DNA of 64,000 nucleotides. Source: Acidobacteriota bacterium. GTDB taxonomy: Bacteria; Acidobacteriota; UBA6911; RPQK01; JADFOI01. This document shows positions 4,888 through 52,148 of the stretch, one piece after another. The stretch is from positions 2,912,001-2,976,000 of the forward strand of contig OY760074.1 of the NCBI GenBank assembly GCA_963663035.1. The letters are read 5' to 3'. Made by a program: the position numbers and the translations under genes. Position 1 is the first letter of the stretch; each line of letters begins with the position of its first letter. The notes below the pieces were generated by a model that was given only the letters and a program-made list of their open reading frames with translations, had not been told where the DNA came from and searched no databases.

Positions 4888-5062
4888 CCCGCATTATGCA
4901 TAGGTTTTCGTAGCGAAGTGGCGCAGGTGCCGCGATGACAAGGCGTGTGACGAAGCGCCCCGCAGGCGTACTCTTGCAGTACGCCGAGGAGCGCAAGGAA
5001 ACACAACGCAGTCAGCGCGGATGATTGCGACGCTGTAGTAGAAAATCTATGCATGATGCGGG
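4888..5062 (+). mobile_element. Structured MITE-like element, type A (IS1380-like ends), 175 bp
   Basis: TIR CCCGCATTATGCATA/TATGCATGATGCGGG, flanks TAAG/CTAG. Contains the GCAGGCGTACT..AGTACGCCGAGGA hairpin. Confidence 0.85.
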
Positions 5063-5143
5063 CTAGTCGTATATGCTCTGGGGACCGCCTGCTCGTGGGC
5101 AGATGGATAACAAGCACAATTGCTCAAAAAAACAGGAGGATTG

Positions 5144-6811
5144 ATGATGAACCCGATACGGTTCTCAATAACCTTGTTCCTTGCATTCTCAGCACTGCCT
5201 CTGGCTGCTTGCAGCGGAGTCATGGGGGATCAGGCCTTCTCGGAAGAAGAGTTGGCCTGTCTGGCACTCACCGGTGTCCGCAATCTCACCATTACCTCAG
5301 CCCGGTTGGTCCCGGCCGCCGATGAGACGCCCCAATATTGCTACGTCAAAGGAGTGATCGCACCGGCCATAAGCTATCATGTCCAGCTTCCCTTGCCGGA
5401 AAACTGGAACGGCCGATTCCTCAAGTGGGGAGATGGCGGCAAGGACGGGGACCTGGATTTCGCGAATCACCGGGTGGCCGAAGGATACGCGGTTGCCAAC
5501 AGCAACATGGGGCACGACAGTGGAGCGGAACCAGGCTCAGCCTTTGGCTATGACAACCGGCAGGCGGAGATCGACTTTGGCTACCGGGCCGTGCATCTCA
5601 CCGCCAACGCGGCCAAGACGATGATCCGGCAGTATTACGATCAGGCTCCCGAATATTCCTATTTCGAGGGTTGCTCGACAGGTGGCAGGGAAGGTCTGAT
5701 GGAAGCACAACGCTATCCCTACGACTTTGACGGGATTGTGGCTGGTGCTCCCGTGATTCACTATCAGACAACGAATGTGAGCCATGCCTGGATGCTGCAA
5801 AAGGTCTTCCAGAACGACTTCGCGGATAACCTGGCCTTTGACACCGACGGAGATGGCTCCTTCGACAGTTTGAAAAAAGTGAAGATGCTGGAGGACGCGG
5901 TACTGGCCAAATGCGATGCCAATGATGGGATCACCGACGGAATCATTGATAATCCCCTCGCCTGCGAATTCGCCCCAGACTTGGATCTGGCTGAGATGAT
6001 GTGCAGTGGGAATGTGAATGCCGACGATTGTTTCACCACCGGTCAGCTGCAAAATATAAAAGATTTCTACGCGGGCCCTTACGACAGCAAGGGAGTTTCC
6101 ATCTTAAAAGGGAAAGCCTTTGGCTCGGAATGGGCCTGGCCCAATAGCAACATACCCCATGAAGGAAACTCCCTGTTCCCAGGCAATTTAGGGTATGTGA
6201 GAAACCACTTCAACGCTATCTTTTACGAGGAGGATCCAGGTGTGGCCCCGCCGGATATCACTGACCTCTCCTACCAGCTGGATAAGAGAGCCATACCACC
6301 GGAATGGGCCTGGTGGGAATTTAATGTTGACGATGTCACGGCAGGTCGAGGCGACTTGATGATGTCAATCATCGATGCGACGGATCCGGACTTGACCCGA
6401 TTCCTCATCCAAAACGAAGGAAAGATCATCCTCTACCACGGCTGGGCTGATTTTTCTCCTCCTCCTGAACCCAGCGTGGATTACTACAATGCAATGGTGG
6501 ACGCCACTTTCGGGGGTGATCTAGAGGAGGCCAGAAATCAAGCCAGATTGTTCATGGTGCCCGGGATGGGTCACTGCCGGGGTGGGCCCGGACCCAACAC
6601 CTGGGACAAACTACCAGCGCTGGTGGATTGGGTTGAGAACGGAAATGCACCGGACTCCCTCATCGCCACCCACAGCACGGATGGAGTGGTCGATAACGAA
6701 CGGCCCCTTTGCCCCTATCCGGAACAAGCCGTTTACAGCGGCCCTTCCGGCGGCGAAAACGACGCCGCTAACTGGGTGGCCAGCAACTTCATATGCCAGG
6801 AAGTGAGATAA
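5144..6811 (+). CDS. Tannase/feruloyl esterase family alpha/beta hydrolase, predicted lipoprotein
   Basis: GCSTGG nucleophile elbow, HGWAD and GMGHC (CS-D-HC motif), lipobox LAAC, SD GGAGGA before ATG 5144. Confidence 0.9.
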   Translation: MMNPIRFSITLFLAFSALPLAACSGVMGDQAFSEEELACLALTGVRNLTITSARLVPAADETPQYCYVKGVIAPAISYHVQLPLPENWNGRFLKWGDGGKDGDLDFANHRVAEGYAVANSNMGHDSGAEPGSAFGYDNRQAEIDFGYRAVHLTANAAKTMIRQYYDQAPEYSYFEGCSTGGREGLMEAQRYPYDFDGIVAGAPVIHYQTTNVSHAWMLQKVFQNDFADNLAFDTDGDGSFDSLKKVKMLEDAVLAKCDANDGITDGIIDNPLACEFAPDLDLAEMMCSGNVNADDCFTTGQLQNIKDFYAGPYDSKGVSILKGKAFGSEWAWPNSNIPHEGNSLFPGNLGYVRNHFNAIFYEEDPGVAPPDITDLSYQLDKRAIPPEWAWWEFNVDDVTAGRGDLMMSIIDATDPDLTRFLIQNEGKIILYHGWADFSPPPEPSVDYYNAMVDATFGGDLEEARNQARLFMVPGMGHCRGGPGPNTWDKLPALVDWVENGNAPDSLIATHSTDGVVDNERPLCPYPEQAVYSGPSGGENDAANWVASNFICQEVR

Positions 6812-6823
6812 GAACCATCAGAC

Positions 6824-12195: not shown

Positions 12196-12321
12196 TGGCG
12201 GGTGTTCAGGCAGGTCTAGATCGAGGCCGCACAAGCCCTTCGACCGCAGGCGTAGCCGGAGCTACGTTGAGGATCGAAGGGCGCGGAGAACGAAGAGCTT
12301 GGCCTTCCTGGACAGCCGCCA
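12196..12321 (+). repeat. Rod-shaped palindromic element, type C, with the same core as the MITE family
   Basis: Ends TGGCGGGTGTTCAGG/CCTGGACAGCCGCCA, inner stem CCCTTCGA/TCGAAGGG, apical GCAGGCGTAGC-CGGA-GCTACGTTGAGGA. Confidence 0.7.
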
Positions 12322-12322: not shown

Positions 12323-14332
12323 CTAGGGGGCTGTCAGGTCTACCAGATCGTTCTTGCTCTTCTTCTGAAGGACCATCTCTTCATAGTACTCACGAACCAT
12401 GGCCTCCTCTTTGGCTGCCTTCCTGCGCGCCATCTTCTCATCTCGCGCGGTTTGCGGTCGGTCGCCCTTATCTTTCATCCGGCTCGCATCCTTCGCATTG
12501 ATCTTCAGGGCGTGCTCGTAAGTGTCGAGGTCGACATCTTTGCCGCCGGCAAAGATCTCGTGACGACCTTGTTCCTTGTACCAGTTCGCGACGGTGGCAT
12601 TCATGTGCATGTGCTCAATGATGTTTCGCCATCCGTGGCCCGTATTATAGGCGCAGAAGGAAATTTCGCCTTCCTGGGTTGCATAGGGAATGATGCACAT
12701 CTCGGTACGGCGAAAGTCGTAATTGAACAAATCCTGAAACCACATACCGGCGACAAAGAGAAAGTTCCAGCGATCGTCACGACGATCCTTGGCCGCTGTG
12801 CCATAGTCCTTGCCCGACAAACCAAAGCTCTTATCAAACTTCTTGAGGAGATCCAGCAGGGTCAGCTGGGAAGGCGCTTGAAATGGTTTGTAGTTCTTGA
12901 GCAAGGCCAATCCCATCATGAGGTTGGAAAACCAGGTTTCTCGCCCCGCATCGGTGATCCCCTGCATATCCTTGACCAGTCCCGGGATATTGAGGAATTG
13001 TGGTACAGGGGCTGCTTCTTTGGTTTCCTTGTCAATCATCATGGCCGTACCGATGCCGCAGTTGGGATGGCAGCCACAGCTCACCTGGCCCCACTTGGCT
13101 GACGGTCCGTGCGCCTGATCCGCAAAATCAGCAAAGGCACCCATCAGGGACAGGGGGAACCAGTCTCTGGTGGGTTCGGTCAATCCAACCTGCGTTTTGA
13201 CATCCCTGGCCAGGTGGGACAAGGTATAACGCTGTCGGAGCCTTCGCTCGTCCGTGATTTCCTCATCCCGCCCGGTAAAGGACACCGGTTGAAAGGCAAT
13301 GAAAGCGATCTTCTTGGGGTTGTCCATCGCGAAGCGGATAATGGGTCCCACCTGATCATTGTTCACGTCGTTGACCAGGGTGATCACCAGGATGATCTCG
13401 ATTCCCGCTTCGTGGATGTTATTTATGGCACGCAGCTTGACATCGAACAGGTTGCCGATGTGGCGATGGCTGTTGGCATCGTTCCCAATCCCATCAAACT
13501 GCAGGTAGGCATAACGCAATCCCGCCTCGGCTGCTTTGCGGGCAAAGGTCTTGCTTTTGGCAAACTCAATTCCGTTGGTAGCAGCTTGCACGCTGTTGTA
13601 GCCGATTTTACGGGCATACTTGATGGCTCGGAAAAAGTGCGGGGAGATGGAAGGCTCACCACCTGAGAACTGCACCGACATCTGCCGTCTTGGTTTGATC
13701 TTCATGGAGTTGTCGAGTATCTCTTTGATTTCGCCCCACTCCAGTTCATGGACAAAACCCACCTGGTTGGCATCCATGAAGCAGGGATCGCACATCATAT
13801 TACAGCGGTTGGTCAGATCGACCGTGAGCACCGAACCGCGTCCATGCTTGATGGTACTGGACCCGTGGTCGTGCAGATCTTTGTCATTGTGAGTCCGAAT
13901 ATCGCGACCGGGAAAGTTTTCCTCAATCCAGCTCAAGAATTTGGTATCGATGGCCATCAAGTCTTCAAACTTTCCGTGCTGAGGACACTCTTTGATCATC
14001 CACACCTCTCCATCACGATCCACAATCTGGGCCTTGATTTCACCGACTTTCTCATCGATGAGGATCCGATAATCTTCTTCTCCGCTCAGAATCCTCTCAC
14101 GCGCTTCCACCACACACTTGGGACAGAGTGAATCCGTCTCACGCGGCCAACCCAGCTTGGGCTTGGTTTTCTCCCAGGATTTCAGCAAAGGTTTATCGGA
14201 CCATTTCGGGGTAAAGGAGGGTCTGGGTTTATATTTGTTGAAGAATTGAATGGAGTTGAAAGAAACTCGTGCCCCAAAACAGAGGGCCGTATCCATACAC
14301 TTCAACGCGTTTGTGGTTAAACTTGCTGGCAT
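12323..14332 (-). CDS. Radical SAM enzyme, homolog of tetraether lipid synthase (Tes/GDGT-MAS)
   Basis: N-terminal CPKC...CPQH metal site, CNMMCDPC radical SAM motif, FSGGEP, YLQFDG, FQPVSFTGR, CHPNC and CIIPY..FCAYN auxiliary-cluster cysteines. Confidence 0.85.
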   Translation of the reverse strand: MPASLTTNALKCMDTALCFGARVSFNSIQFFNKYKPRPSFTPKWSDKPLLKSWEKTKPKLGWPRETDSLCPKCVVEARERILSGEEDYRILIDEKVGEIKAQIVDRDGEVWMIKECPQHGKFEDLMAIDTKFLSWIEENFPGRDIRTHNDKDLHDHGSSTIKHGRGSVLTVDLTNRCNMMCDPCFMDANQVGFVHELEWGEIKEILDNSMKIKPRRQMSVQFSGGEPSISPHFFRAIKYARKIGYNSVQAATNGIEFAKSKTFARKAAEAGLRYAYLQFDGIGNDANSHRHIGNLFDVKLRAINNIHEAGIEIILVITLVNDVNNDQVGPIIRFAMDNPKKIAFIAFQPVSFTGRDEEITDERRLRQRYTLSHLARDVKTQVGLTEPTRDWFPLSLMGAFADFADQAHGPSAKWGQVSCGCHPNCGIGTAMMIDKETKEAAPVPQFLNIPGLVKDMQGITDAGRETWFSNLMMGLALLKNYKPFQAPSQLTLLDLLKKFDKSFGLSGKDYGTAAKDRRDDRWNFLFVAGMWFQDLFNYDFRRTEMCIIPYATQEGEISFCAYNTGHGWRNIIEHMHMNATVANWYKEQGRHEIFAGGKDVDLDTYEHALKINAKDASRMKDKGDRPQTARDEKMARRKAAKEEAMVREYYEEMVLQKKSKNDLVDLTAP

Positions 14333-16439: not shown

Positions 16440-16449
16440 TTAATCTTAG

Positions 16450-16705
16450 CCCGCACTTCTCACACCCGCTCTACTACAGCGTCGCAATGATCCGACCTGA
16501 CTGCGTTGCACGACCCGCAAGCGGGTACCCCTCACCTCCTCAACGTACTCAAGAGTACGTTTGCGGGGGGCCGACCCGTGGCGGGTACCCCTCGCGCGCC
16601 AGTCGGAGCCGCAGGCTTTAGCCTGCGGGCCCGTGGGCTAAAGCCCACGGCTCTGTTTTCCGGCCCTTCCGCCGCTTCGTGACGACCTGGTGTGAGAACC
16701 GCGGG
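16450..16705 (-). mobile_element. Structured MITE-like element, type B, 256 bp, with a nested REP doublet
   Basis: TIR CCCGCACTTCTCACACC/GGTGTGAGAACCGCGGG, flanks TTAG/CTTG. Core shared with type A. Confidence 0.8.
16605..16654. repeat. Inverted pair of REP-like palindromes (REPIN-like)
   Basis: GGAG-CCGCAGGC-TTTA-GCCTGCGG, and on the opposite strand AGAG-CCGTGGGC-TTTA-GCCCACGG. Confidence 0.7.
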
Positions 16706-16709
16706 CTTG

Positions 16710-16735
16710 CCCGCACTTCTCACACCCGCTCTACT
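16710..16735 (-). repeat. Truncated tandem copy of the type B end
   Basis: CCCGCACTTCTCACACCCGCTCTACT is identical to 16450-16475 and lies 4 bp after the full copy. Confidence 0.75.
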
Positions 16736-16760
16736 TCCTTTCTGATACACTTTTCTTAAG

Positions 16761-16905
16761 CCGGGATTATTCATAGGTTTTCGTGACGAAGTGCCGCAGG
16801 CGCCGCGATGACAAGGCGTGCAAGGAGTACCCGCTTGCGGGTCGCACAACGTAGCCAGCGTGGATGATTGCGGCACTGCAGTAGAAAACTTATGCATAAT
16901 ACCGG
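16761..16905 (+). mobile_element. Structured MITE-like element, type A, 145 bp
   Basis: TIR CCGGGATTATTCATA/TATGCATAATACCGG, flanks TAAG/CTAG. Confidence 0.85.
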
Positions 16906-16920
16906 CTAGAGGACTGACTG

Positions 16921-25500: not shown

Positions 25501-26135
25501 AGGTTGGCCAGCAACACAGTGATCTCAAGGTGCGCCTGGATCGGTTCGGTCCAATCAATATGGCCGCCTTGCAGGAATACCAGGACATTGAAAAGCGTTT
25601 CAATTTTCTCGACTCACAGCGCCAAGACATTGAGAAATCGATTGCTGACACCACACGGGCGATCCAGGAAATCAATCGACGAAGCCGAGAAAAGTTCAGC
25701 CATGCCTTTGAAGCGATCAATTCACACTTCAACGAGATTTTTCAAAAGCTCTTTGGAGGTGGCGAATGTGGGATGCGGCTCTTGGACGAAGAAGATCTTC
25801 TGGAGAGCGGTCTGGATATCTATGCCCAGCCTCCTGGGAAGAAACTTCAAAACGTCAGGCTTCTCTCAGGCGGAGAAGAGGCGCTGACGGTGTTTGCCCT
25901 TCTGATGGCCATTTTCACTCACCGCCCCAGCCGCTTTTGTGTCCTCGATGAAGTGGACGCACCTCTTGACGATGCCAATGTTGTCCGTTTCACAAACCTT
26001 ATTCAGCAGATGAGCGAGCAAACTCAGTTCATTGTCATTACTCATAACAAGCACACAATGAAGTCGGCCAATGCTCTTTACGGTATCACCATGGAGGAAG
26101 CGGGCGTTTCTCAGGTGGTGTCGGTAAAACTTTAG
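22551..26135 (+). CDS. smc: Chromosome segregation protein SMC
   Basis: GFKSFA, Walker A GPNGCGKSN, long coiled coils with a hinge, LSGGE signature, LDEVDAPLD and ITH. Confidence 0.95.
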   Translation: MLRLDRLELTGFKSFAEKTSIQFEGGISSIVGPNGCGKSNLADAIGWVLGSGSAQSLRGQRMDDVIFSGTRKRRPSGLVDATLVFSRDDNKPIVLKETEFSGEILEIGRKLYRSGESVYTVNQRRCRLKDIHSVLEEAGLGFASYALIAQGKIGWFLRAKPVERRSVIEEAACITGYKSRRRSAEVKLELAQQNLLRVNDIISEIERRLRSLKRQAAQARSYKRVKEEFRQVQRQKFVLEAHQLRVGLQSLDRELDQLKKSDENLSKELVQGEEAHRETLNKREQLESGLSQLRQTSSETRLETDRTENSIQYHGEQIEASRKSLEINASEQQTIAQSLEKVGEELTRFLSECITLEKEEEQIEAAINEQTEVVNRHEAEVKEAEGRALELQTRLPRLSAETASFNNLKGQLEQRLQAAHSNRERLERARASSLLKLKESTASLTTTRSSLAKKKSETTLLAQRLDEQETQKLNLQRQLEETKGEAEEAHQKFIAQRERLHSLQELQLSHAQYSDGVQSILKHLKATESVRTGGTLAECIETSPRYEKMVEKFLEEELEYILVDSLDEALVGISELRTLKSGRCTFLALSSSNGFQKSNSHNPIVGASSGNGVHGMLSDLLQMNPEIKKAFNRALPQRAEAIVVSNLEKALELAPQNPERTFITLDGESLTPRGLLSASAVQEQELGLLSLKRQKRDLENTILEVQKRSQTLREKQEQQQEQLRETLKFFTDKEESLRQLEREMIGLTHLEEQWEREQTLQEQALKVIEGEMAQLLLEQEQHAREITEVEEQLAEKKGQQASKEKLLSQTQDSLQQLRVELGRIREQLHSRSSDHKVLGERRLALDRAVERLEEQRQAFEVRKEITQTTQQQHEERLEKMTAALETLRADFSRYQKEAAQLASTLQEREEEYERWKEDYPKTEEGLVASRGRKAELQEERAQVDVQRARVETQLQHINQQVLEQLQMSLDEAAEGIDPKQVSEEVGQQHSDLKVRLDRFGPINMAALQEYQDIEKRFNFLDSQRQDIEKSIADTTRAIQEINRRSREKFSHAFEAINSHFNEIFQKLFGGGECGMRLLDEEDLLESGLDIYAQPPGKKLQNVRLLSGGEEALTVFALLMAIFTHRPSRFCVLDEVDAPLDDANVVRFTNLIQQMSEQTQFIVITHNKHTMKSANALYGITMEEAGVSQVVSVKL

Positions 26136-26281
26136 CCGAGATTATTCATAAGTTATCTACTGCAGTGCCGCAATCATCCACGCTGACTGCGTAGTGCGAC
26201 CCGCAAAGCGGGTACCCCTCGCACGCCTTGTCATCTCGGCGCCTGCGGCACTTCGTCACGAAAACCTATGAATAATCTCGG
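26136..26281 (-). mobile_element. Structured MITE-like element, type A, 146 bp, exactly between two convergent TAG stops
   Basis: Perfect TIR CCGAGATTATTCATA/TATGAATAATCTCGG, flanks TTAG/CTAG. Confidence 0.88.
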
Positions 26282-26518
26282 CTAGCCTCTTCCCTTCTTC
26301 TCGATTCCGTGTTCCCGGATTTTCTTGGAGAGCGTATTTCGATGAACGCCCATGGTTTCGGCTGCGCGGCTCAGGCTTCCATTCGTTTCCTTCAGGACGC
26401 GCAGGATAAAGAGCTTTTCGAACTGGGAAACGGCTTCAGACCAGTAAATTCCCTTGGTCACCATCTCATCAATGAGCTTCTCGAGTACCTGTTTGATTTT
26501 GGTCTGTTCGGCGCTCAT
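26282..26518 (-). CDS. Small Fis-type (HTH_8) DNA-binding protein
   Basis: FEKLFILRVLKETNGSLSRAAETMGVHRNTLSKKI. Confidence 0.85.
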   Translation of the reverse strand: MSAEQTKIKQVLEKLIDEMVTKGIYWSEAVSQFEKLFILRVLKETNGSLSRAAETMGVHRNTLSKKIREHGIEKKGRG

Positions 26519-27420: not shown

Positions 27421-27439
27421 TGGCCTCTCTCCTCCCAAG

Positions 27440-27647
27440 CCGGCATCATGCATAAGTCATCTACTGCAGGGCCGCAATCATCCACGCTGACTGCGTTGTG
27501 CGACCCGCAAAGCGGGTACCCCTTGGGCTCCTCGGCGTACTGCATGAGTACGCCTGCGGGGCCCGACCCGCAAGCGGGTACCCCTCGCACGCCTTGTCAT
27601 CGCAGCGCCTGCGACCCTCCGTCACGATGACCTATGCATAATCCCGG
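27440..27647 (-). mobile_element. Structured MITE-like element, type A, long form of 208 bp, just upstream of the purC RBS
   Basis: TIR CCGGCATCATGCATA/TATGCATAATCCCGG, flanks CAAG/CTAG. Two GGGGTACCCGC..GCGGGTC modules surround the inner hairpin. Confidence 0.85.
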
Positions 27648-27718
27648 CTAGTGATTCTATATGGAAGATGGGCAACAGGAAAACTTCCATCAGAAAAAGG
27701 GTTAAGTTTTCTAATCGC

Positions 27719-30029: not shown

Positions 30030-31631
30030 GTGACTCAAAAATGGTCTGTGGCGTTGTTTTGTGGCAGCGTCATCTACCTGACGCTTTTTTATCAGCTGGG
30101 CAACCTGGCCTTTCTCGGTGCGGATGAGCCCCGTTACGCCCGCATTGGCGAGGAAATGAACCTGCGGGACAGCTATATCACTCCAACCCTGAATTTTCGA
30201 CCTTGGCTAGAGAAACCCCCCTTACTGTTCTGGCTGGAGGCGGGTAGTTTCCAACTTTTCGGAGTTCACGAATGGTCGGCCCGACTGCCGGTGGGAATCG
30301 TGGCCCTGCTGTCACTGCTCATGATGGCCCTACTGGCCTTTAAGCTTGCAGGTCCTCGCGTCGCCATTCTCACTGTCTTGATCTTATCCACTTCAATGCT
30401 CTTCGTTGCCTTTGCCCGGGCTGCCAGCACCGATACGCTCCTGGTTGCGCTGCTCAGCGCGGCTATGGTTTGTGGCTTTCAAGCCACCCGCGGCAGCTCC
30501 ATCCTGTGGGCAGGCAGCGCCGGGGTGGCACTAGGTCTTTCCGTGTTGGCCAAAGGACCTGTGGCGGTGGTTCTCTTCGCCGGCATCTTTGGACTTTACT
30601 TTCTGCTTGAACAAGAAATCGGTTGGACCGCGCTACAGATCGCCGTGGCAGCGAGCCTCTTTTTGGTGACGAGTGTTCCCTGGTTTTGGCAGGTTTGGGT
30701 GGAGAATGGATACGATTTCATAGCCACCTTCTGGCTCAATCATCACCTGGCACGCTTTTTCACCGATATCCACCATCACTCCCAACCCTTCTGGTATTAC
30801 CTGGCTGTGGTGGCCTTAGGTTTCTTCCCCTGGGTTTGCTTCCTCGGTTCCGCCTCCTTACGCACCTGGCGGCGGGGCAGGCATCTTCTCAGTTCCGCCT
30901 ACCGCCCTGAACTCTTTCTATGGCTGTGGGTGGGAGTGCCCTTTGTTTTCTTTTCACTCAGTGAGAGCAAACTGGCGGGTTATATTCTGCCAGTGTTCCC
31001 ACCACTGGCTGTGATTGTTGCCATGGAGTGGGAACACTGGCTCAAAGGTGATCTGATTAGCCATCGCCTGATGCCTGCCCAACTCCTGGCGCTGGTAGGA
31101 TATGGCCTGGTTGTGGCTGTTTCATTGATCTGGGGTTCTTACTCGGCATACGGTGCGCTGGGTCTCGGCATCCTTTTGGCCTTACCGATTTTAGGAGGGA
31201 TCACCTGGGCTTACCTTAAGTTCCGGCAACATCGTCCTCTGGCTATCTTCTTGTCCCTGGTGGCAGCTATGACCTTATTTACGGCACTCACCTTTTGGAG
31301 GGCGGCCCCGGTGGTTGATGATTACCACTCCGCTCGAGATCTCAGCCAGCTCATCCTTCCTGAAATCTCCGCCAACGAGCCCTTGCTTCTTTACCGATAT
31401 TTTCATCACACCGCTCATTACTATACGAACTATCAAACTGCCCAGGAATCGTTATCAGATCTGGCAGGACTTCAAGACTACTTTCAAAACCATCCCCAGA
31501 GTCGATATTACATCCTCACTCAGGAATCAGGCTGGCGCCAGCTTCAGCAGCTCGAGCTCAGTCTGGTTCGACATCAGGGTAATCTCTACCTGCTTGAAAT
31601 CACTCCCCCAGTTCCGGAGGAAAACCATTAG
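30030..31631 (+). CDS. ArnT/PMT-family (GT83/GT39) membrane glycosyltransferase
   Basis: DEPRYA, EKPPL, AKGP and SKLAGYILP motifs; many transmembrane segments. Confidence 0.9.
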   Translation: MTQKWSVALFCGSVIYLTLFYQLGNLAFLGADEPRYARIGEEMNLRDSYITPTLNFRPWLEKPPLLFWLEAGSFQLFGVHEWSARLPVGIVALLSLLMMALLAFKLAGPRVAILTVLILSTSMLFVAFARAASTDTLLVALLSAAMVCGFQATRGSSILWAGSAGVALGLSVLAKGPVAVVLFAGIFGLYFLLEQEIGWTALQIAVAASLFLVTSVPWFWQVWVENGYDFIATFWLNHHLARFFTDIHHHSQPFWYYLAVVALGFFPWVCFLGSASLRTWRRGRHLLSSAYRPELFLWLWVGVPFVFFSLSESKLAGYILPVFPPLAVIVAMEWEHWLKGDLISHRLMPAQLLALVGYGLVVAVSLIWGSYSAYGALGLGILLALPILGGITWAYLKFRQHRPLAIFLSLVAAMTLFTALTFWRAAPVVDDYHSARDLSQLILPEISANEPLLLYRYFHHTAHYYTNYQTAQESLSDLAGLQDYFQNHPQSRYYILTQESGWRQLQQLELSLVRHQGNLYLLEITPPVPEENH

Positions 31632-31777
31632 CCCGCAATTCTCACACCCGCTCTACTGCATCGACGCAAGGACCGACCTGACGGTGTTGCGCGACCCGCA
31701 CAAGCGGGTACCCCTCGCGCGCCTTGTCAGGCCGGTCCTTGCGCCGCTTCGCGACGACCTGGTGTGAGAAATGCGGG
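31632..31777 (-). mobile_element. Structured MITE-like element, type B, 146 bp
   Basis: TIR CCCGCAATTCTCACACC/GGTGTGAGAAATGCGGG. Begins right after the TAG stop of the glycosyltransferase. Confidence 0.8.
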
Positions 31778-31820
31778 CGACCAGGGCCCAACATGTTAAG
31801 ATAAGCACTTTACGGTAGGT

Positions 31821-34531: not shown

Positions 34532-34549
34532 GCTCGGGGAGAAGTCTAG

Positions 34550-34740
34550 CCCGAATTATGCATAAAGTTTCTGCTACAGTGGCGCAATCATCCACGCTGA
34601 CGGCGTTGTGTTTCCTTGCGCTCCTCGACGTACTGCATGAGTACGTCTGCGGGGCGCGACCCGCAAGCGGGTACCCCTCACCCGCCTTGTCATCGCGGCG
34701 CTTGCGCCACTTCGCTACGAAAACCTATGCATAATTCGGG
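34550..34740 (-). mobile_element. Structured MITE-like element, type A, 191 bp
   Basis: Perfect TIR CCCGAATTATGCATA/TATGCATAATTCGGG, flanks CTAG/CTTC. Confidence 0.85.
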
Positions 34741-34743
34741 CTT

Positions 34744-36635: not shown

Positions 36636-36911
36636 ATGAAGCTCAATATTAAGGCACTGTCTCTGACTGTCGCAATCGTGTGGGGAGGCAGCATTCTACT
36701 GATTGGTTTGGGCAACTTGATGGCTAACACCTACGGAGGGGCCTTCCTGGAAGTGGTTGCTTCGATTTATCCAGGATACCAGGCCACCTCCTCCTTTGGG
36801 GACGTCATCGTGGGGACACTTTACGGTCTGGTGGATGGATTGATCGGTGGTCTGCTCATCGGGTGGGTGTACAATAAGCTGGTCCCGGAGAGTTCAGTGT
36901 CATCAGCCTAG
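36636..36911 (+). CDS. Small two-TM membrane protein (YPGY motif, holin-like family)
   Basis: MKLNIKALSLTVAIVWGG..SIYPGY..GLVDGLIGGLLIGWVYN. Its TAG stop is part of the IS1380 target CTAG. Confidence 0.75.
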   Translation: MKLNIKALSLTVAIVWGGSILLIGLGNLMANTYGGAFLEVVASIYPGYQATSSFGDVIVGTLYGLVDGLIGGLLIGWVYNKLVPESSVSSA

Positions 36912-38550
36912 CCGCAATTATTCATAAGTTTGGGGTGAGTGTCGATTTTCTGCGGAAGTTCAGGGCTGAGAGTGTGTTCAGGTGCGATTACAAGGCGTCC
37001 AAGCTTGTTGAGCCGAATAGAGATGAAGCGAGAGCCCCTTCCGGAAACAGCTCGGCCCGCAGGGGGCTGTATATCTGTGTTGGCGCAGGGAGTCAGGGGA
37101 CCGTCAGGTGGGACACAGACGGTGCATCAGTAATGCGAAGAGCTTTTGTTCGGGATAAGACGATGCCAGGTGCACCCAGATGCGACGAGAAGTTTCCCGA
37201 ACCCGGGCACCGATTTTGAACAGGCGGCGGCGGAGCGTCTCAATCTCCAGGTTGTGCCAGGGAGTCCCGCACAGGTAATCCCGCAGGCGCAGGATTAAGA
37301 CATAGGCCAGGGCGTGGATGAAGAGTCGGAACTGGTTGGCCAGGAAACGGTGGCAGCTCAAGCGATCCATGGCCAGATCTTTTTTGAAAGCTTTCACGAA
37401 GTTCTCGCACTGGCCCCGTCCGATGTAGTGGTCATACAGCTGCCCGGCCGTGAGATCCTGGCGGTTGGTGACCACAAAGCGACGGTTGAACCCGCGCTCG
37501 CTCACTTCCACCTTGGCCACCATGCGCCGCTCCCGGTCCCAACTGTCGGCCTGATAGACGAGCTCGGTGAACTGGCGTTGCTTTTCTCCTGAGTCGTCAT
37601 AGTCTGCTTGCACCTGCTCAACCAAGGGCTCGACGGTGGCCGCCAGCCGGGAGTTGCGGGCAAAGCCCACCACATACTGCAGTTTTTCCTCCTCACAGAA
37701 CTCGTACAGTGCCGGCGTCGCAAAGCCACTGTCGGCTCGCACTTCGATCGGAACATCGGATCCCAGAACCTGGCGCATCCGGGCCACCACCCGTTTGAGA
37801 ACCGCCACCGCGTGGGCGGCCGCCCCCTGGTTGCCGGGCCGCAGTAGCGCACATACCAGATCGCCCGTCTCGCCATCGAATAGCAACAGCGGATGATACA
37901 TGTGCTCGCGATAATAGCCGTGGTAAAAGCTGAACTCCTGCTGCCCATGCGTGACGTCATCCGTGCTGTCGATGTCCAGGATGATCTTCTCGGGCCGGCT
38001 CTTCTTGCGGTGCTTCAAGTAGGTCTCCAGCAGCCACTGTCCCAGGCGAGTGAGATCCTTCGAGTCCACCGAGTTCTCCAGTCGCGACAGCGTGGGTTGA
38101 GAAGCCAGATCCGGATCGCTTTCCGGCAGCCGATCACACACGGTCTTGAAGATGGGATCCGAGCGCAAGCTGTCGGCATCGTTGCAGTCCTCATAGCCGG
38201 CCACGATCTGAAAGCTGCGCTGGGTGAGCAGTTCGCGAATCTGGTGGCGGACGTAGCGGCTATCTCGAGCGTCCTTCAGGCAGGAGGCAAAGCCAGCCGT
38301 CAGTCCGTGCTGTTGATCCAGGGCGTACAGACACAGCAGCCCGGCATCGGAGGAGAGCCGGCCTCCATCGAATCGAGCCACCACTTTTCTGTCAGGGTGA
38401 GATGGCAAGTTGATCTGGCAGACTGATGCATCGCTGGGTCGTACCTTTTTGGTTTGGAGTTGTTTCATAACCCCTTTTATATCAAAGAGGTACGGCATCT
38501 TTTTGTGCCCTCGATCAGACCCCTTCTTCAGAATTTATGAATAATCCGGG
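36912..38550 (-). mobile_element. IS1380-family element, copy 1 (1639 bp)
   Basis: IRs CCCGGATTATTCATAAATT / CCGCAATTATTCATAAGTT, with a CTAG duplication on both sides. Confidence 0.95.
37104..38498 (-). CDS. IS1380-family transposase
   Basis: FDGGRLSSDAG, GYEDCND, LASQPTLSRLEN, LDIDST, RADSGF and RGQCEN. Confidence 0.95.
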   Translation of the reverse strand: MPYLFDIKGVMKQLQTKKVRPSDASVCQINLPSHPDRKVVARFDGGRLSSDAGLLCLYALDQQHGLTAGFASCLKDARDSRYVRHQIRELLTQRSFQIVAGYEDCNDADSLRSDPIFKTVCDRLPESDPDLASQPTLSRLENSVDSKDLTRLGQWLLETYLKHRKKSRPEKIILDIDSTDDVTHGQQEFSFYHGYYREHMYHPLLLFDGETGDLVCALLRPGNQGAAAHAVAVLKRVVARMRQVLGSDVPIEVRADSGFATPALYEFCEEEKLQYVVGFARNSRLAATVEPLVEQVQADYDDSGEKQRQFTELVYQADSWDRERRMVAKVEVSERGFNRRFVVTNRQDLTAGQLYDHYIGRGQCENFVKAFKKDLAMDRLSCHRFLANQFRLFIHALAYVLILRLRDYLCGTPWHNLEIETLRRRLFKIGARVRETSRRIWVHLASSYPEQKLFALLMHRLCPT

Positions 38551-38579
38551 CTAGGGCGGGCATCCAGGCGGCGCAGAGG

Positions 38580-39982: not shown

Positions 39983-40270
39983 ATGGAAGACCGCAGACGA
40001 AATGAGGCCGCCATAGCTGAGAGGGTCCGTGAGTTGGCACAAAGCTATTGCATCCAGGTCGAACAGGTGTCTTATAGTCCCGTCGACAATCCGCTCAACC
40101 AGGAAACCGAACTGACTGTCTCATTTGATGTGGGTAACAGAAAGCGACCAGGTGAGATTAAGATTCCCGTAAAGGATGTTGATGACTATCAAAGTGGCTC
40201 TGATGCGAGAATGCGGTTGGACAGAAAGATAGAGTCTGTCTTGGGCACCATCGACTCCCGCTCGGGCTAG
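39983..40270 (+). CDS. Hypothetical protein (95 aa)
   Basis: ORF with AGGA upstream and plausible composition; no recognised motif. Confidence 0.55.
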   Translation: MEDRRRNEAAIAERVRELAQSYCIQVEQVSYSPVDNPLNQETELTVSFDVGNRKRPGEIKIPVKDVDDYQSGSDARMRLDRKIESVLGTIDSRSG

Positions 40271-40416
40271 CCGGGATCATGCATAGATTTTCGTGACAAA
40301 GTGCCGCAGGCGGCGCGATGACAAGGAGCCCAAGGGGTACCCGCTTTGCGGGTCGCACAACGCAGTCAGCGTGGATGATTGCGGCACTGCAGTAGAAAAT
40401 TTATGCATGATCCCGG
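40271..40416 (+). mobile_element. Structured MITE-like element, type A, 146 bp
   Basis: Perfect TIR CCGGGATCATGCATA/TATGCATGATCCCGG with a CTAG duplication. Confidence 0.9.
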
Positions 40417-40457
40417 CTAGAAAAACACATGAGGATTCCTGGCCTGGGCGTTCTTGC

Positions 40458-40577
40458 TTAGACCCGTCGCTCCGGCGGGAAGATCAGAGGCTGGTCAATG
40501 GGGCACCAAGCCATCAGTAAGGCCGCACTGACTAACAAGAGAATCATCAGAACAATGATCAGCGTTTTTTGGTTCAC
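40458..40577 (-). CDS. Possible small membrane peptide (39 aa)
   Basis: MNQKTLIIVLMILLLVSAALLMAWCPIDQPLIFPPERRV from a GTG start. Confidence 0.4.
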   Translation of the reverse strand: MNQKTLIIVLMILLLVSAALLMAWCPIDQPLIFPPERRV

Positions 40578-40618
40578 TGCTCTTCTTCAGGGTAGAACGA
40601 TTCGCCAGTTAACGCGTA

Positions 40619-41065: not shown

Positions 41066-41249
41066 TACCTCCCTGCTACTTTAGATTTGTACCTAGTATA
41101 CTCCCTCTACCGCAATGGAGCGAGTGAGTGAAATCCCCCACTCACTGGGACCTTTGCCCTTATTCTAGCTCTCCTCACCCTTGCCTCTCCTGGCCCTGAA
41201 TAGCGGTAAGTTGCTTTTCAATCAGTGAGTTGCACGAGATGCGGGAGAA

Positions 41250-41265
41250 CGGCACGGAAATTGCT
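41250..41265 (+). promoter_or_regulatory. Sigma54 -24/-12 promoter
   Basis: CGGCACGGAAATTGCT matches YGGCACG-N4-TTGCW. An IHF-like AATCAGTGAGTTG lies at 41220-41232. Confidence 0.65.
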
Positions 41266-41302
41266 ATCTAAGAGAGCAGGGTGGGTAGGGACAAGTGCCT
41301 AG

Positions 41303-42941
41303 CCCGGATTATTCATAAATTCTGAAGAAGGGGTCTGATCGAGGGCACAAAAAGATGCCGTACCTCTTTGATATAAAAGGGGTTATGAAACAACTCCAAA
41401 CCAAAAAGGTACGGCCCAGCGATGCATCAGTCTGCCAGATCAACTTGCCATCTCACCCTGACAGAAAAGTGGTGGCTCGATTCGATGGAGGCCGGCTCTC
41501 CTCCGATGCCGGGCTGCTGTGTCTGTACGCCCTGGATCAACAGCACGGACTGACGGCTGGCTTTGCCTCCTGCCTGAAGGACGCTCGAGATAGCCGCTAC
41601 GTCCGCCACCAGATTCGCGAACTGCTCACCCAGCGCAGCTTTCAGATCGTGGCCGGCTATGAGGACTGCAACGATGCCGACAGCTTGCGCTCGGATCCCA
41701 TCTTCAAGACCGTGTGTGATCGGCTGCCGGAAAGCGATCCGGATCTGGCTTCTCAACCCACGCTGTCGCGACTGGAGAACTCGGTGGACTCGAAGGATCT
41801 CACTCGCCTGGGACAGTGGCTGCTGGAGACCTACTTGAAGCACCGCAAGAAGAGCCGGCCCGAGAAGATCATCCTGGACATCGACAGCACGGATGACGTC
41901 ACGCATGGGCAGCAGGAGTTCAGCTTTTACCACGGCTATTATCGCGAGCACATGTATCATCCGCTGTTGCTATTCGATGGCGAGACGGGCGATCTGGTAT
42001 GTGCGCTACTGCGGCCCGGCAACCAGGGGGCGGCCGCCCACGCGGTGGCGGTTCTCAAACGGGTGGTGGCCCGGATGCGCCAGGTTCTGGGATCCGATGT
42101 TCCGATCGAAGTGCGAGCCGACAGTGGCTTTGCGACGCCGGCACTGTACGAGTTCTGTGAGGAGGAAAAACTGCAGTATGTGGTGGGCTTTGCCCGCAAC
42201 TCCCGGCTGGCGGCCACCGTCGAGCCCTTGGTTGAGCAGGTGCAAGCAGACTATGACGACTCAGGAGAAAAGCAACGCCAGTTCACCGAGCTCGTCTATC
42301 AGGCCGACAGTTGGGACCGGGAGCGGCGCATGGTGGCCAAGGTGGAAGTGAGCGAGCGCGGGTTCAACCGTCGCTTTGTGGTCACCAACCGCCAGGATCT
42401 CACGGCCGGGCAGCTGTATGACCACTACATCGGACGGGGCCAGTGCGAGAACTTCGTGAAAGCTTTCAAAAAAGATCTGGCCATGGATCGCTTGAGCTGC
42501 CACCGTTTCCTGGCCAACCAGTTCCGACTCTTCATCCACGCCCTGGCCTATGTCTTAATCCTGCGCCTGCGGGATTACCTGTGCGGGACTCCCTGGCACA
42601 ACCTGGAGATTGAGACGCTCCGCCGCCGCCTGTTCAAAATCGGTGCCCGGGTTCGGGAAACTTCTCGTCGCATCTGGGTGCACCTGGCATCGTCTTATCC
42701 CGAACAAAAGCTCTTCGCATTACTGATGCACCGTCTGTGTCCCACCTGACGGTCCCCTGACTCCCTGCGCCAACACAGATATACAGCCCCCTGCGGGCCG
42801 AGCTGTTTCCGGAAGGGGCTCTCGCTTCATCTCTATTCGGCTCAACAAGCTTGGACGCCTTGTAATCGCACCTGAACACACTCTCAGCCCTGAACTTCCG
42901 CAGAAAATCGACACTCACCCCAAACTTATGAATAATTGCGG
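41303..42941 (+). mobile_element. IS1380-family element, copy 2 (1639 bp)
   Basis: Reverse complement of copy 1, with a CTAG duplication. Confidence 0.95.
41355..42749 (+). CDS. IS1380-family transposase
   Basis: Protein identical to that of 37104-38498. Confidence 0.95.
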   Translation: MPYLFDIKGVMKQLQTKKVRPSDASVCQINLPSHPDRKVVARFDGGRLSSDAGLLCLYALDQQHGLTAGFASCLKDARDSRYVRHQIRELLTQRSFQIVAGYEDCNDADSLRSDPIFKTVCDRLPESDPDLASQPTLSRLENSVDSKDLTRLGQWLLETYLKHRKKSRPEKIILDIDSTDDVTHGQQEFSFYHGYYREHMYHPLLLFDGETGDLVCALLRPGNQGAAAHAVAVLKRVVARMRQVLGSDVPIEVRADSGFATPALYEFCEEEKLQYVVGFARNSRLAATVEPLVEQVQADYDDSGEKQRQFTELVYQADSWDRERRMVAKVEVSERGFNRRFVVTNRQDLTAGQLYDHYIGRGQCENFVKAFKKDLAMDRLSCHRFLANQFRLFIHALAYVLILRLRDYLCGTPWHNLEIETLRRRLFKIGARVRETSRRIWVHLASSYPEQKLFALLMHRLCPT

Positions 42942-43010
42942 CTAGTTCTCTCCCTCAATGTGTGGGCTACGCATAACCTGCCCTTCCCACCTTTCCACTC
43001 TTTTAGGAAG

Positions 43011-49716: not shown

Positions 49717-50834
49717 GTTTAGTTCGCATCCGCGCGGTGGCTCGCAAGGAGCTTCTCCACATCTGGCGGGATGTGCGCAGTCTGATCATCTCTCTACTGT
49801 TGCCGGTCTTGATGCTTCTGCTGTTCGGATACGCCCTCAACCTCGATGTGGACCAGATCCCTACTCTGATTTACGATTCCGATGAAAGTCCGCAAAGCCG
49901 AGCGCTTATCGCACGCTTTGAGGGGTCCCGATATTTTCAAGTCTTGGGTTCAGTGGAAGATTACCAAACCATAGAAGACTGGATCGACCGTGATGAATGT
50001 TTGATCGGTGTGGTGATCCCCAAGGATTTCGCCCGCAACCTCCTCACGGGAAGACAGGCCCAGGTACAGTTGTTGGTCGATGGCAGCGACTCCAACACCG
50101 CCTCAATAGGCCTTGGATATGCTGAGGCCATCTTGGCCAATCATGCCTCGGCTCTGCAAAGCCAAAGGAGTGGAGAGGCCCTTTCCCTGCCAGTAGAAGC
50201 TCGGTTGCGCGTGTGGTACAACAGCGACCTGGAATCCAAGAACTACATCGTCCCGGGACTGCTGGCGGTCATTCTGATGATCATCTCCGCCTTGCTCACC
50301 TCCCTGACGATTGCCCGAGAGTGGGAAATGGGAACCATGGAGCAGCTGCTCTCCACCCCCCTGAGACCGGCTGAGCTGGTATTGGGCAAAATGTCCGCCT
50401 ATTTTGCTGTCGGCGCAATCGATACCGCGGTCGTCATTGTGGTCGCGGTGACCATTTTCCAGGTTCCGCTGAGGGGAAGTGTGTTCTTCCTGGCTGCCAC
50501 ATGTTTTGTGTTCCTCTTTGGGGCTCTTTGCTGGGGGATTTTGCTTTCTGCCATGGCCAGTTCCCAGTTAATGGCCTATCAGCTGGGCATGACGACATCC
50601 TTTCTGCCCACTTTCCTCCTCTCGGGCTTTATTTACGCTATCGAGAACATGCCCGTGCCCATTCAGCTCTTTACCTATCTGGTGCCTGCGCGCTACTTCA
50701 TCAACATTTTGAGGGGAATCTTTCTCAAAGGGATTGGTTTTGAATTCCTGGCGGTGGAGGTGGTCTTTCTCACGGCCTTTGCCACCCTGGTTTTTCTGGC
50801 GGCAACACGGAAAGTTAAGCGGAAGGTAGCTTAG
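49713..50834 (+). CDS. ABC-2 type permease (YbhS-like)
   Basis: IAREWEMGTMEQLLSTP and LLSGF. Confidence 0.92.
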   Translation: MSLVRIRAVARKELLHIWRDVRSLIISLLLPVLMLLLFGYALNLDVDQIPTLIYDSDESPQSRALIARFEGSRYFQVLGSVEDYQTIEDWIDRDECLIGVVIPKDFARNLLTGRQAQVQLLVDGSDSNTASIGLGYAEAILANHASALQSQRSGEALSLPVEARLRVWYNSDLESKNYIVPGLLAVILMIISALLTSLTIAREWEMGTMEQLLSTPLRPAELVLGKMSAYFAVGAIDTAVVIVVAVTIFQVPLRGSVFFLAATCFVFLFGALCWGILLSAMASSQLMAYQLGMTTSFLPTFLLSGFIYAIENMPVPIQLFTYLVPARYFINILRGIFLKGIGFEFLAVEVVFLTAFATLVFLAATRKVKRKVA

Positions 50835-52003
50835 TGCCTCGCTTCAAAAATAAGATGTGGAGACGTATTCGCGAAATTGTCAGGAAAGAAATCCTTCAGA
50901 CCTTGAGAGAGCCCCGGATGCGTGTTCTCCTCTTCTTGCCACCCATCCTTCAGCTGATCATCTTCGGTTACGCGGTGAACCTGGACGTGGAAAACAGTCC
51001 GATCGCCTGGATGGATCAGGACCGTACGCCAGAGAGCCGGGAACTGCTGTCTGACTTCGAGGGATCACGCCATTTCCGAGTGACCCGAACCCCCAGTCGG
51101 GAGGACGAGGTTCAGGAGCTGCTGGACCGAGCAGAGGTCCAGGCAGTCGTCCGCGTCTTTCCGGGCTTCGGTCGGGATATCCGCCGGGGAGAAAGGACGC
51201 ATGTCCAGATTCTGGTTGACGGCACAAATTCCAACAGCGCCTCCATCGTCTCCAACTCAGCCACCCAGGTTGTGGCCCGCTATGCTGCCCGCATCCAGGG
51301 AGAGCGCCGAAAAGTCCAGTTCACGGCATCTCGCGCCAGTCCGGCCGGTCTGAAGGGTCCTCTCTTATCGGTCCAGAGTCGGATCTGGTTTAACGTTGAT
51401 TTGCGAAGTCAGAATTATTACGTCCCAGGTGTGGTTGTGAACATCATCGCCCTGGTGACCTTGATGCTCACGGCTATGGCCATCGTTCGCGAGAAGGAGA
51501 TTGGCACCATGGAACAGCTCATGGTCACGCCCATTCGACCCGTTGAACTAATACTGGGCAAGACGCTTCCTTTTGCTGCCATTGGACTCCTGGAGGTCGT
51601 CCTGGTGACAAGTGCAGCCTTGTTGATCTTTAAGATACCCTTTCGAGGAAGCTTTGTGCTGCTACTGGGGTGTGCAGCCGCATTCTTGTTGAGCTCCTTG
51701 GGTACCGGTCTATTGATCTCAACTGTTTCCAAAACTCAACAGCAGGCCATGATGGCATCGTTTTTCTTTTTCATGCCCGCCTTCATGCTCAGCGGCTTCG
51801 CCTTTCCCATTCGTAATATGCCACTGGCAGTTCAGTACCTGACTTACCTGAATCCGGTGCGCTACTTCATGGAGATTGTGCGTGGCATCTTCCTCAAGGG
51901 CATCGGGCTGGCTGTCCTTTGGCCTCAGATCCTGGCCTTACTCCTGTTAGGCACTGCTCTGGTTGGCCTGAGCGTCCTTCGCTTTCAAAAGCGCCTCGAC
52001 TAG
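50834..52003 (+). CDS. ABC-2 type permease (YbhR-like)
   Basis: IVREKEIGTMEQLMVTP and MLSGF. Start could be ATG 50855. Confidence 0.92.
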   Translation: MPRFKNKMWRRIREIVRKEILQTLREPRMRVLLFLPPILQLIIFGYAVNLDVENSPIAWMDQDRTPESRELLSDFEGSRHFRVTRTPSREDEVQELLDRAEVQAVVRVFPGFGRDIRRGERTHVQILVDGTNSNSASIVSNSATQVVARYAARIQGERRKVQFTASRASPAGLKGPLLSVQSRIWFNVDLRSQNYYVPGVVVNIIALVTLMLTAMAIVREKEIGTMEQLMVTPIRPVELILGKTLPFAAIGLLEVVLVTSAALLIFKIPFRGSFVLLLGCAAAFLLSSLGTGLLISTVSKTQQQAMMASFFFFMPAFMLSGFAFPIRNMPLAVQYLTYLNPVRYFMEIVRGIFLKGIGLAVLWPQILALLLLGTALVGLSVLRFQKRLD

Positions 52004-52148
52004 CCGGTATTATGCATAAATTATCTACTGCAGTGCCGCAATCATCCACGCTGACTGCGTTGTGCGACCCGCAAGCGGGTACCCCTCGCACGCCTTGTCA
52101 TCGCGGCGCCTGCGGCACTTCGTCACGAAAATCTACACATAATACCGG
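52004..52148 (-). mobile_element. Structured MITE-like element, type A, 145 bp
   Basis: TIR CCGGTATTATG/CATAATACCGG with a CTAG duplication. Starts right after the permease TAG. Confidence 0.9.

Follow-up and report, generated by a model that had tools for sequence, protein, structure and literature searches.

The question raised by this locus is what kind of element can stand at the end of so many unrelated genes, in many sizes, and still keep both of its arms complementary. The window analysed here, a stretch of 64,000 nt, comprises positions 2912001-2976000 of the 3.59 Mb single-contig genome of an Acidobacteriota bacterium (G000:C1, 54.4% G+C), and it contains ten intergenic elements, called rods here, which fold into long imperfect hairpins. 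A preliminary description, made from the sequence of the window, had listed ten such elements with three types of ends (A, B and C), and direct reading of the positions finds all ten, 1-3 nt from the starts that it gave. [quoted passage not shown] They are unusual for MITEs in the copy-by-copy covariation of their terminal repeats and in their modular tip, which is assembled from two small hairpin cassettes, H1 and M2, whose combinations give the size classes.

The window elements, which a repeat search groups into families D1-D7, are given below from first G to last C, and the strand is that of the canonical, better-folding sequence. Positions are those of the window, and genes are predicted open reading frames (ORFs).

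4887..5063, plus strand: type A rod of 177 nt with M2 only at the apex, 8 nt past the stop of the acyl-CoA synthetase-like ORF 2761-4878.
12197..12320, plus strand: type C rod of 124 nt whose ends (GGCGGGTGTTCAGG..) are peculiar to it and whose apex hairpin is M2-like, in the GTAGC/GCTAC variant; the radical-SAM ORF 12323-14332 (minus strand) has its stop 2 nt away.
16449..16706, minus strand: type B rod, long form of 258 nt, with H1-M2-H1 and a further hairpin block, 9 nt past the TAG stop of ORF 15267-16439.
16709..16738, plus strand: lone copy of the type B left end that immediately follows rod 16449-16706 (repeat family D4).
16760..16906, plus strand: type A rod, short form of 147 nt with apex H1 (from end-motif pairing and alignment).
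26135..26282, minus strand: type A rod, short form of 148 nt, which shares its first G with the TAG stop (last base) of the smc-like ORF 22551-26135.
27439..27648, minus strand: type A rod, long form of 210 nt, H1-M2-H1 (from reading and folding).
31631..31778, minus strand: type B rod, short form of 148 nt with apex H1, abutting the TAG stop of the PMT-like ORF 30030-31631.
34549..34741, minus strand: type A rod of 193 nt with one H1 and M2 (from end-motif pairing and apex reading).
40270..40417, plus strand: type A rod, short form of 148 nt, between two inverted IS copies.
52003..52149, minus strand: type A rod, short form of 147 nt, abutting the TAG stop of the ABC-2 permease ORF 50834-52003.

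The ten elements, used as queries in a genome-wide BLASTN collection of the kind that had been proposed, give 2232 high-scoring segment pairs, which merge into 278 intervals. Pairing of end motifs not more than 400 nt apart over the whole genome finds 130 type A and 53 type B pairs, and only two mixed A/B pairs, both of them formed by neighbouring elements. Type C has about 25 copies, which are compact (12, of about 130 nt), split by about 280 nt (10), split by an IS3-family element (one) or fragments (two). The rods are a family of about 200 members in this genome, and the same rods are found in public species-genome contigs, in metagenome-assembled genomes (MAGs) labelled Acidobacteria or Acidobacteriota. 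Type A falls into length classes of 147-149 (41 copies), 176-177, 191-194, 206-211 and 256-267 nt, and type B into classes of about 148, 198, 206-208 and 257-259 nt. Elements of 124-267 nt in many copies and without coding capacity have the properties of MITEs. The equal size reported for the short A and B forms holds, as 147-148 nt from G to C are 145-146 nt from CC to GG. The M2 motif (GCARRCGTA-loop-TACGYYGAGGA) is present, as described before, in five window copies (4888, 12196, 16450, 27440 and 34550), and the covarying stems quoted in the preliminary description are all found in window copies.

The ends of type A connect it to a resident transposon, of which the window has two copies.

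36911..38551, minus strand: IS1380-family insertion sequence of 1641 bp with transposase ORF 37104-38498 (minus strand), ends that resemble type A and CTAG on both sides.
41302..42942, plus strand: second copy of the same 1641-bp IS, inverted, with transposase ORF 41355-42749 (plus strand).

Both 464-aa transposases match PF13701 (505.9 bits, E 7.7e-152, cut-off 34.7), and the window transposase also matches NF033539 (399.7 bits, cut-off 180). The genome has 29 end-to-end copies of this IS (all of 1641 bp but one of 1619 bp), the two in the window included, and 28 of the 29 are flanked as CTAG/CC...GG/CTAG; all 34 matches to PF13701 in the genome belong to this one IS type or to its fragments. 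Ends that begin with CC and target duplications of 4-5 bp are characteristic of the IS1380 family. The resident IS ends are only similar to the type A rod end, whereas the IS1380-family ends in G003, a genome of the same genus whose IS1380-family protein has 72-74% identity to the resident transposase, and in G026, from another family of the order, read GCCCGGATTATGCATAA after cTA and are identical to the type A rod end over 20 bases. Mapping of the ends to ISs, which had been suggested, assigns type A to this IS1380-family clade; the accompanying claim that the termini were borrowed from different transposons finds no support as stated, since only the A ends can be traced to a transposon.

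The flanks of type A are also similar to those of the IS. Position -1 is A in 122/130 copies and position +1 is T in 123/130, and the outer flank bases T and A are kept in 87/130 and 92/130, so that the inner A and T are retained in >94% of copies and the outer bases in about 68%. The genome also contains 26 "empty" 24-bp palindromes, e.g. 834147-834170, which consist of two type A ends alone and lie mostly between TA and TAG; some of them carry symmetric private changes. Sequence comparison suggests that type A would be mobilised in trans by an IS1380-family transposase, which would cut it out and paste it into YTAG; type B would possibly be moved likewise, because its ends also start with CC after CTAG.

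Plain, neutrally decaying deletion derivatives of the IS would have the same ends and target, and this origin would also fit the one weak subterminal match of 15-20 nt between IS and rod interior (rod about 47-66, IS 74-93), which six of the seven window A copies show at E 0.011-0.23. This origin is nevertheless extremely improbable, as it is already contradicted by the rest of the interior, which is unrelated to the IS, and by the strong covariation described below, and the internal motifs are conserved in A, in B and in rods of another family of the order. The preliminary description had held that the core is no deletion product of an IS1380 interior, and the short match at those E values leaves that view standing.

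Fold and covariation of the rods. The canonical strand is the one that reads ..TTCGTGACGAAG.. first (the plus strand at 16760-16906), and its short consensus folds at -85.9 kcal/mol, against -71.7 kcal/mol for the complement. For 27438-27651 (214 nt, a long form with flanks) the canonical RNA reaches -124.5 kcal/mol against -88 +/- 4.4 in shuffled sequences (z -8.3; 0/200 shuffles as good), the RNA of the other strand -106.7 kcal/mol (z -6.3) and the canonical strand as DNA -63.7 kcal/mol (z -6.4). The predicted fold is one continuous rod in which the two H1 copies pair together and M2 forms the tip, which agrees with the long hairpin described before. RNAalifold on the five short window copies gives 57 pairs, 15 of which have changes on both sides. 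Over 129 A copies and 50 predicted pairs, read on one strand, 5396 cells are Watson-Crick, 580 are G:T, 120 are A:C and 344 are other combinations. Nearly all 129 A copies keep a paired terminal stem of about 23 bp; B and C have inverted ends of their own. Two adjacent positions are G:T in 108 and 94 of the 129 A copies, and a CUUG-type loop caps H1 and some M2 hairpins on the same strand.

Each copy was compared with its nearest neighbour, because subfamilies inherit their differences. The set consists of unique copies (117 comparisons, 8 differences on average), and the counts are pairwise comparisons, not a phylogenetic test. Double changes from one Watson-Crick pair to another number 63 at the predicted pairs and 0-7 when the partner is slid by 1-3 columns, and single changes to or from G:T outnumber those to or from A:C (197 vs 82). 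The hairpin is kept by more than descent. Of the compensatory doubles, 53/63 fall in the terminal 23 bp, over 16 columns, and 27/53 are of transversion type; nine others lie in the middle stems and one in the inner stems. As proposed here, copies would survive best when the whole element folds back as a single strand, and selection of this kind would keep the arms complementary and tolerate G:T on one strand. The earlier proposal of a selected structured RNA or ssDNA (single-stranded DNA) module thus stands for the conservation of structure, shown by the 63 doubles against 0-7; the observations favour neither RNA nor ssDNA (no bias relative to gene orientation, a replichore bias in type A). 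The Rfam check that it had advised finds no family that matches any rod: covariance models run on the window at the gathering threshold and at E<=5 return only two tRNAs and one chance ArcZ match elsewhere.

The same doubles could be produced mechanically, if arm complementarity were unselected and were restored either by correction between the arms of an extruded hairpin or by synthesis of one arm on the other through fold-back. The position of 53/63 doubles in a perfectly paired terminal stem, half of them transversion-type, agrees with such a process, and so do the symmetric private changes that are also seen among the 26 empty palindromes. A general correction would, however, erase the mismatches, bulges and G:T pairs, and the same ones persist in most copies; the asymmetric internal loops are moreover conserved between A and B. 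Unselected repair of this kind is improbable.

Placement of the rods was judged against gene positions from a rough codon-usage ORF caller made for this work (3000 calls, 87% coverage). A rod end overlaps a predicted stop codon in 50/130 A and 21/53 B rods (in the window at the smc-like, PMT-like and ABC-2 ORFs), together the 71/183 rods that abut TAG stops. Another 28 A and 19 B rods are found not more than 20 nt from a stop, which gives totals of 78/130 and 40/53. None of the 53 B rods is located between divergent genes and 29/53 are located between convergent genes. Over the whole genome CTAG occurs at 0.21 of its expectation from base composition, TTAG and CTAA occur at about 0.3, and 918/3000 called genes end in TAG. 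Since CTAG is so rare, TAG stop codons would supply many of the targets, and a preference for YTAG would place rods at gene ends without further cause. TAG stops would thus act as landing targets, and the inserted rods would become hairpins of the 3' untranslated region (3'-UTR). A selfish element that uses stop codons as landing pads can in this way resemble a 3'-UTR device.

Comparison with relatives shows how variable these insertions are. The 11 kb from 25000 to 36000 are syntenic in all six genus relatives (78-93% identity). The A27440 site has no rod in 6/6 of them, which carry 46-119 nt of unrelated sequence instead, and the B31632 site has none in the 5/5 in which both flanks were found; the junctions of these empty sites are not clean insertions, and the intergenic DNA has also diverged. 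The rods are insertion-polymorphic between genus relatives. The A26136 and A34550 sites are, as seen by eye, occupied by a different, AT-rich palindromic element in four genus relatives each (L130, L134, L143 and L149 for A26136; L126, L127, L128 and L131 for A34550), which has ..AAATCCTAAATC.. arms and CTCTAAGAG/CTCTTAG ends.

According to another explanation, the host keeps the rods mainly as structured RNA at gene 3' ends, as terminators or barriers to 3' exonucleases, and mobility is only the means of delivery. The closeness to stop codons (78/130 A, 40/53 B) and the avoidance of divergent gene pairs by type B fit this idea, as do the other palindromic element at two of the window sites in relatives, the excess of G:T over A:C and the CUUG-type loops that top H1 and some of the M2 hairpins on the same strand. 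The Logan contigs of three metatranscriptome runs also contain rod-like pieces with 3-8 differences, although such contigs show neither strand, ends nor level and may hold DNA; the Logan contigs of a DNA run break at every rod. Against it, the canonical strand has no preference relative to the upstream gene (it is the transcribed one in 28 A rods and the other strand is in 35, p 0.45; 13 vs 14 for B), nor is there any rod orientation bias in tandem gene pairs. The two sites that are free of rods in all relatives examined indicate that these genes manage without them, no T-run follows the hairpins in the window sequences read, and no Rfam family matches. A main role as host RNA is therefore unlikely.

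Type A has instead a bias relative to replication. Its canonical strand is on the lagging-strand sequence in 84/130 copies and flips with the replichore (23:39 vs 45:23, Fisher p 0.0015), with origin and terminus placed by cumulative GC skew only; type B has no such bias (27 vs 26 of 53). A replichore-dependent orientation is one of the points in favour of movement as ssDNA hairpins by an HUH (Y1) enzyme, in the manner of repetitive extragenic palindromes (REPs) and REPINs with their REP-associated tyrosine transposases (RAYTs), where the structure and not the end sequence would be recognised. The copy-by-copy covariation of the terminal stems also agrees with this, and the genome has two Y1_Tnp genes, one of which reaches 70.8 bits against the model for REP-associated tyrosine transposases (cut-off 80). 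Neither gene is flanked by rods, the ends and CTAG flanks are those of an IS1380-family IS, and type B lacks the replichore bias, which makes this mode of movement very improbable. The RAYT was rejected as mobiliser of the rods on the ground that the Y1 loci have no flanking rods. The first of these loci (L001, G000:C1:344884-348228) encodes a 150-aa IS200-like Y1 protein and has its own REP-type repeats (..GGAGCCCCGAAGGGGCGACAGGAAATAGCCCAGGGCGCAGCC..) on both sides, unrelated to the rods. The second (L002, G000:C1:2323222-2326542) has a 246-aa RAYT-like gene between 40-bp direct repeats, which duplicate the 3' end of a Mg-chelatase/ComM-like ORF, and looks integrated.

Several observations weigh against rods as IS1380-type MITEs. 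No autonomous partner IS for type B or C was found in this genome among the unpaired ends and IS loci inspected, and TA is present on both flanks in only 46/130 A rods (19/53 for B). Beyond the 15-20 nt match the rod interior does not come from the IS. G005 (10 contigs, 93% complete) has no transposase match at E<=1e-20 despite 43 H1 matches, B-type ends and rod-like matches, and the fragmented MAGs G001, G002 and G006 have none at this threshold either; such matches are found in 17/40 genomes (leaving out G017), most of the relatives being fragmented MAGs, whose assemblies often lack IS copies and repeats. The concentration of compensatory doubles in the terminal 23 bp is not predicted by a transposase that reads the end sequence, the MITE model leaves the replichore bias of type A unexplained, and the placement at gene ends depends on rough gene calls instead of an annotation. 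Two candidate parents were rejected: the unpaired B ends in the genome bracket no gene, and the sole C copy with 1.5 kb inside (L160) holds an inserted IS3-family element. The B ends listed for G029, a genome from another family of the order, lie away from the IS1380 homologues listed there, as judged by eye from partial lists.

Rods as MITEs have relatives in kind among the known stem-loop MITEs. ERIC, Correia/NEMIS, RUP, Nezha and Chunjie, as presented in the parts of PMC3184786 and PMC3733652 that were available, resemble the rods in their 100-300 bp, TIRs, TA-containing flanks and many copies, and also in their location at gene 3' ends, where co-transcription is reported for known families. 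Dependence on a transposase acting in trans would be a further common feature, which sequence suggests for the rods. The rods differ in having IS1380-family ends, copy-by-copy terminal covariation and a tip cassette array that is common to families with different ends. A literature search for IS1380 together with MITE, within the text accessible to it, found no IS1380-ended MITE family. REPs are hairpins of 20-40 nt with an unpaired GTAG or CGTC tag, according to the accessible part of PMC3733652. The REP/REPIN-RAYT systems, as described in the sections available of PMC3733652 and PMC3116915, are also intergenic hairpin repeats in which structure is kept while sequence drifts; unlike them, the rods are 5-10 times longer (124-267 nt), have TIRs and CTAG flanks and are not beside Y1 genes, and H1 has no GTAG or CGTC tag. 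About 200 rods with their subfamilies and relatives are a natural data set on what makes a MITE persist, its end sequence, its folded single strand or both.

Relation of types A, B and C. A and B can be aligned from end to end; what distinguishes them is a set of about 14 subterminal bases per arm, which are swapped in both arms together. Common to both are the first seven bases (GCCCGCA in one A subfamily) and all of the interior, with the arm motifs ..TCGTSRCGAAG.., ..CTGACAAGGCG.., ..CAACRC.GTCAG.. and ..GCAGTAGA.., the asymmetric internal loops and the H1 tip. The same apex series is seen in both (H1 alone, H1-M2-H1, H1-M2, M2-H1 and M2 alone), with H1-alone tips in 38 A and 7 B rods of about 150 nt and H1-M2-H1 tips in 31 A and 9 B rods. 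The variants of M2 covary as AA:TT, GG:CC and GA:TC. Rods with H1 alone have about 147 nt and rods with H1-M2-H1 about 209 nt, and this difference of 62 nt is one H1+M2 unit, which suggests that size classes can arise by loss or gain between direct H1 copies.

B ends (not more than one mismatch) are found in 19/41 genomes searched (18/40 leaving out G017), including all six genus relatives. They are also present in other families of the order, with 175 copies in G018 and 36 in G029, neither of which has H1. Five G029 rods were fetched, four with an M2-type tip (one of them degenerate), one with another tip and none with H1; all five keep the arm motifs and four keep CTAG-type flanks. Common descent explains A and B, given their whole-length alignment and the B rods without H1 in another family, and by their sequences the two appear to be sister lineages that differ in one swapped stem. 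The M2-tipped, H1-less rods of G029 indicate that arms with M2 are the wider form, which is probably the older scaffold to which H1 was added in this family. Type C shares with A and B only the M2-type apex hairpin in its GTAGC/GCTAC variant, and is a separate MITE. Of the earlier view of one core with three borrowed sets of ends, the part that holds is that H1, and to a lesser degree M2, occurs on varied outer sequences; the ends of A and B were not borrowed onto a common core, the two aligning throughout apart from one swapped stem, and C has only M2. An M2-like hairpin also tips unrelated rods of about 200 nt ten times in the Syntrophorhabdales genome G044, and was absent from the other four H1 genomes tested. 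In ten C copies, e.g. L161 (G000:C1:497850-498340), the loop of the tip hairpin holds a further MITE, about 280 nt long and bounded by inverted ends of its own, and this composite is itself repeated. Four type C units form a tandem array with a period of 168 nt at G000:C1:662819-663452 (L162).

H1 across bacteria. The tip hairpin H1 has, with not more than one mismatch, 166 copies in the genome, and all of them are in rods (116 A, 40 B, 10 degenerate). It is present in all six genus relatives (32-56 copies) and in 4/8 other genomes of the family, and in 0/26 genomes from the other 15 families of the order. The exact H1 20-mer is found in at least 111 stretches of public species-genome contigs (L013-L123) from about ten phyla. 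The counts below are a sample, among the matches listed, and the taxon labels are record titles.

Planctomycetota groups: 39 of at least 111 stretches.
Acidobacteriota: 29.
Syntrophorhabdales, Syntrophus or "delta proteobacterium": 18.
Chloroflexota: 12.
Ca. Saccharibacteria: 2.
Verrucomicrobiaceae, Gemmatimonadota, Abditibacteriaceae, Ca. Staskawiczbacteria, Thermosynechococcaceae cyanobacterium and WOR-3: 1 each.
Unlabelled: 5.

Counts over whole genomes are 186, 56, 35, 13 and 2 in G041-G045, which are labelled Planctomycetia, Gemmataceae, Chloroflexota, Syntrophorhabdales and Staskawiczbacteria, and the reversed pattern has 0 in all five. The flanks of H1 outside Acidobacteriota are unrelated to rods. 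Six H1 copies are nested inside a second, partial H1, and several copies in Planctomycetia are at the tip of palindromes whose last bases are ..CTAC, complementary to the REP tag GTAG. Of the 73 contexts left when rod-like and nested ones are set aside, 60 have G directly after H1 and 47 have C directly before it. No direct-repeat signal of a target-site duplication was found for k=2-5. H1 sits on a flanking stem of at least 5 contiguous bp in 14/113 contexts, against 4.8% in controls, which is a modest enrichment.

H1 lies within open frames of 380-970 codons in genes whose products can be recognised. A cyanobacterial leuS (L107) has 10 residues between the two anchors, and 15 of the 18 other homologues printed have 5. 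The cysteine desulfurase gene of a Saccharibacteria MAG (L112) has 8 residues where all 21 homologues printed have 3, and its H1 peptide occurs in 1/60 anchored sequences, which is the query itself. The insert in the dnaX gene of a Saccharibacteria MAG (L108) is missing from two homologues of 94-95% identity; the anchors are 27 apart in 104/119 homologues and 32 apart in 7, and several homologues carry a decayed H1 peptide. The gain of five codons in each of the three genes gives a net H1 insertion of 15 nt. CCCG recurs at 15-nt spacing within the H1 22-mer, and protein alignments cannot tell which bases existed before.

A tentative reading, which may well prove wrong, is that H1 (20-22 nt, C-GACCCGCAAGCGGGTRCCCC-G) is an independently spreading +15-nt insertion in hairpin tips, REP-like palindromes, MITEs and, in frame, essential genes of about ten phyla, with no transposase visibly attached, which hitch-hiked here on IS1380-type MITEs and was amplified to 166 copies. 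We know of no transposition mechanism that easily accounts for this distribution. Microhomology-guided templated insertion at stalled forks may be one route, and no mechanism is supported over others. A RAYT finds no support as mobiliser of H1: the 24 Y1 loci (76 kb) of G041 and G042 have one loose H1 match, and G043 has 35 H1 copies and no Y1 match. Exact H1 was found in one stretch of viral contigs, so that phages are no obvious carrier, and the long rod has no blastn match in the phage and plasmid collections. If the proposal is true, H1 would rank with the smallest of the known mobile DNA elements, it would be the first of them seen across phyla, and its mechanism would be new. Filled and empty sites across thousands of genomes make the spread of very small repeats testable with H1.

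The nearest precedent found for H1, by analogy, appears to be the small dispersed repeats (SDRs) of cyanobacteria. SDR5 of heterocystous cyanobacteria has 21 nt, inserts between the third and fourth base of HIP1 and has no known function, as stated in the available parts of PMC4390886, PMC13756078 and PMC3116915. H1 is like the SDRs of these papers in its size of about 21 nt, far below that of a transposon, and in its precise insertion, a likeness in kind and not a comparison of sequences. It is unlike them, as far as the same parts describe them, in that it occurs in about ten phyla instead of a few cyanobacteria and lies in frame within conserved genes. Rickettsia palindromic elements (RPEs), in the passages available of PMC3733652 and PMC3184786, are also palindromic and in frame within genes that probably still work; they have about 105-146 bp and were described from Rickettsia, whereas H1 adds a net 15 nt and crosses phyla. 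A full-text search with three 13-mers (DNA, RNA and complement) found no printed occurrence of H1, a search to which REP-consensus figures and supplementary files are external, and a described REP family of Planctomycetes could contain it.

Other features of the window were also recorded. The inverted IS pair at 36911-42942 brackets 38552-41301, including rod A40271, and has the look of a composite transposon. The ORF 35336-36523 (minus strand) within 35221-36523 has rve, helix-turn-helix (HTH) and IS481 leucine-zipper domains and is located beside a tRNA (35224-35295), and the repeat 35221-36523 has at least 12 copies in the genome at 97-100% identity. A 122-nt repeat (families D8 and D9) is present at 53943-54064 and 59376-59496, 5.4 kb apart and with 91-93% identity, each copy at the start of a long ORF.

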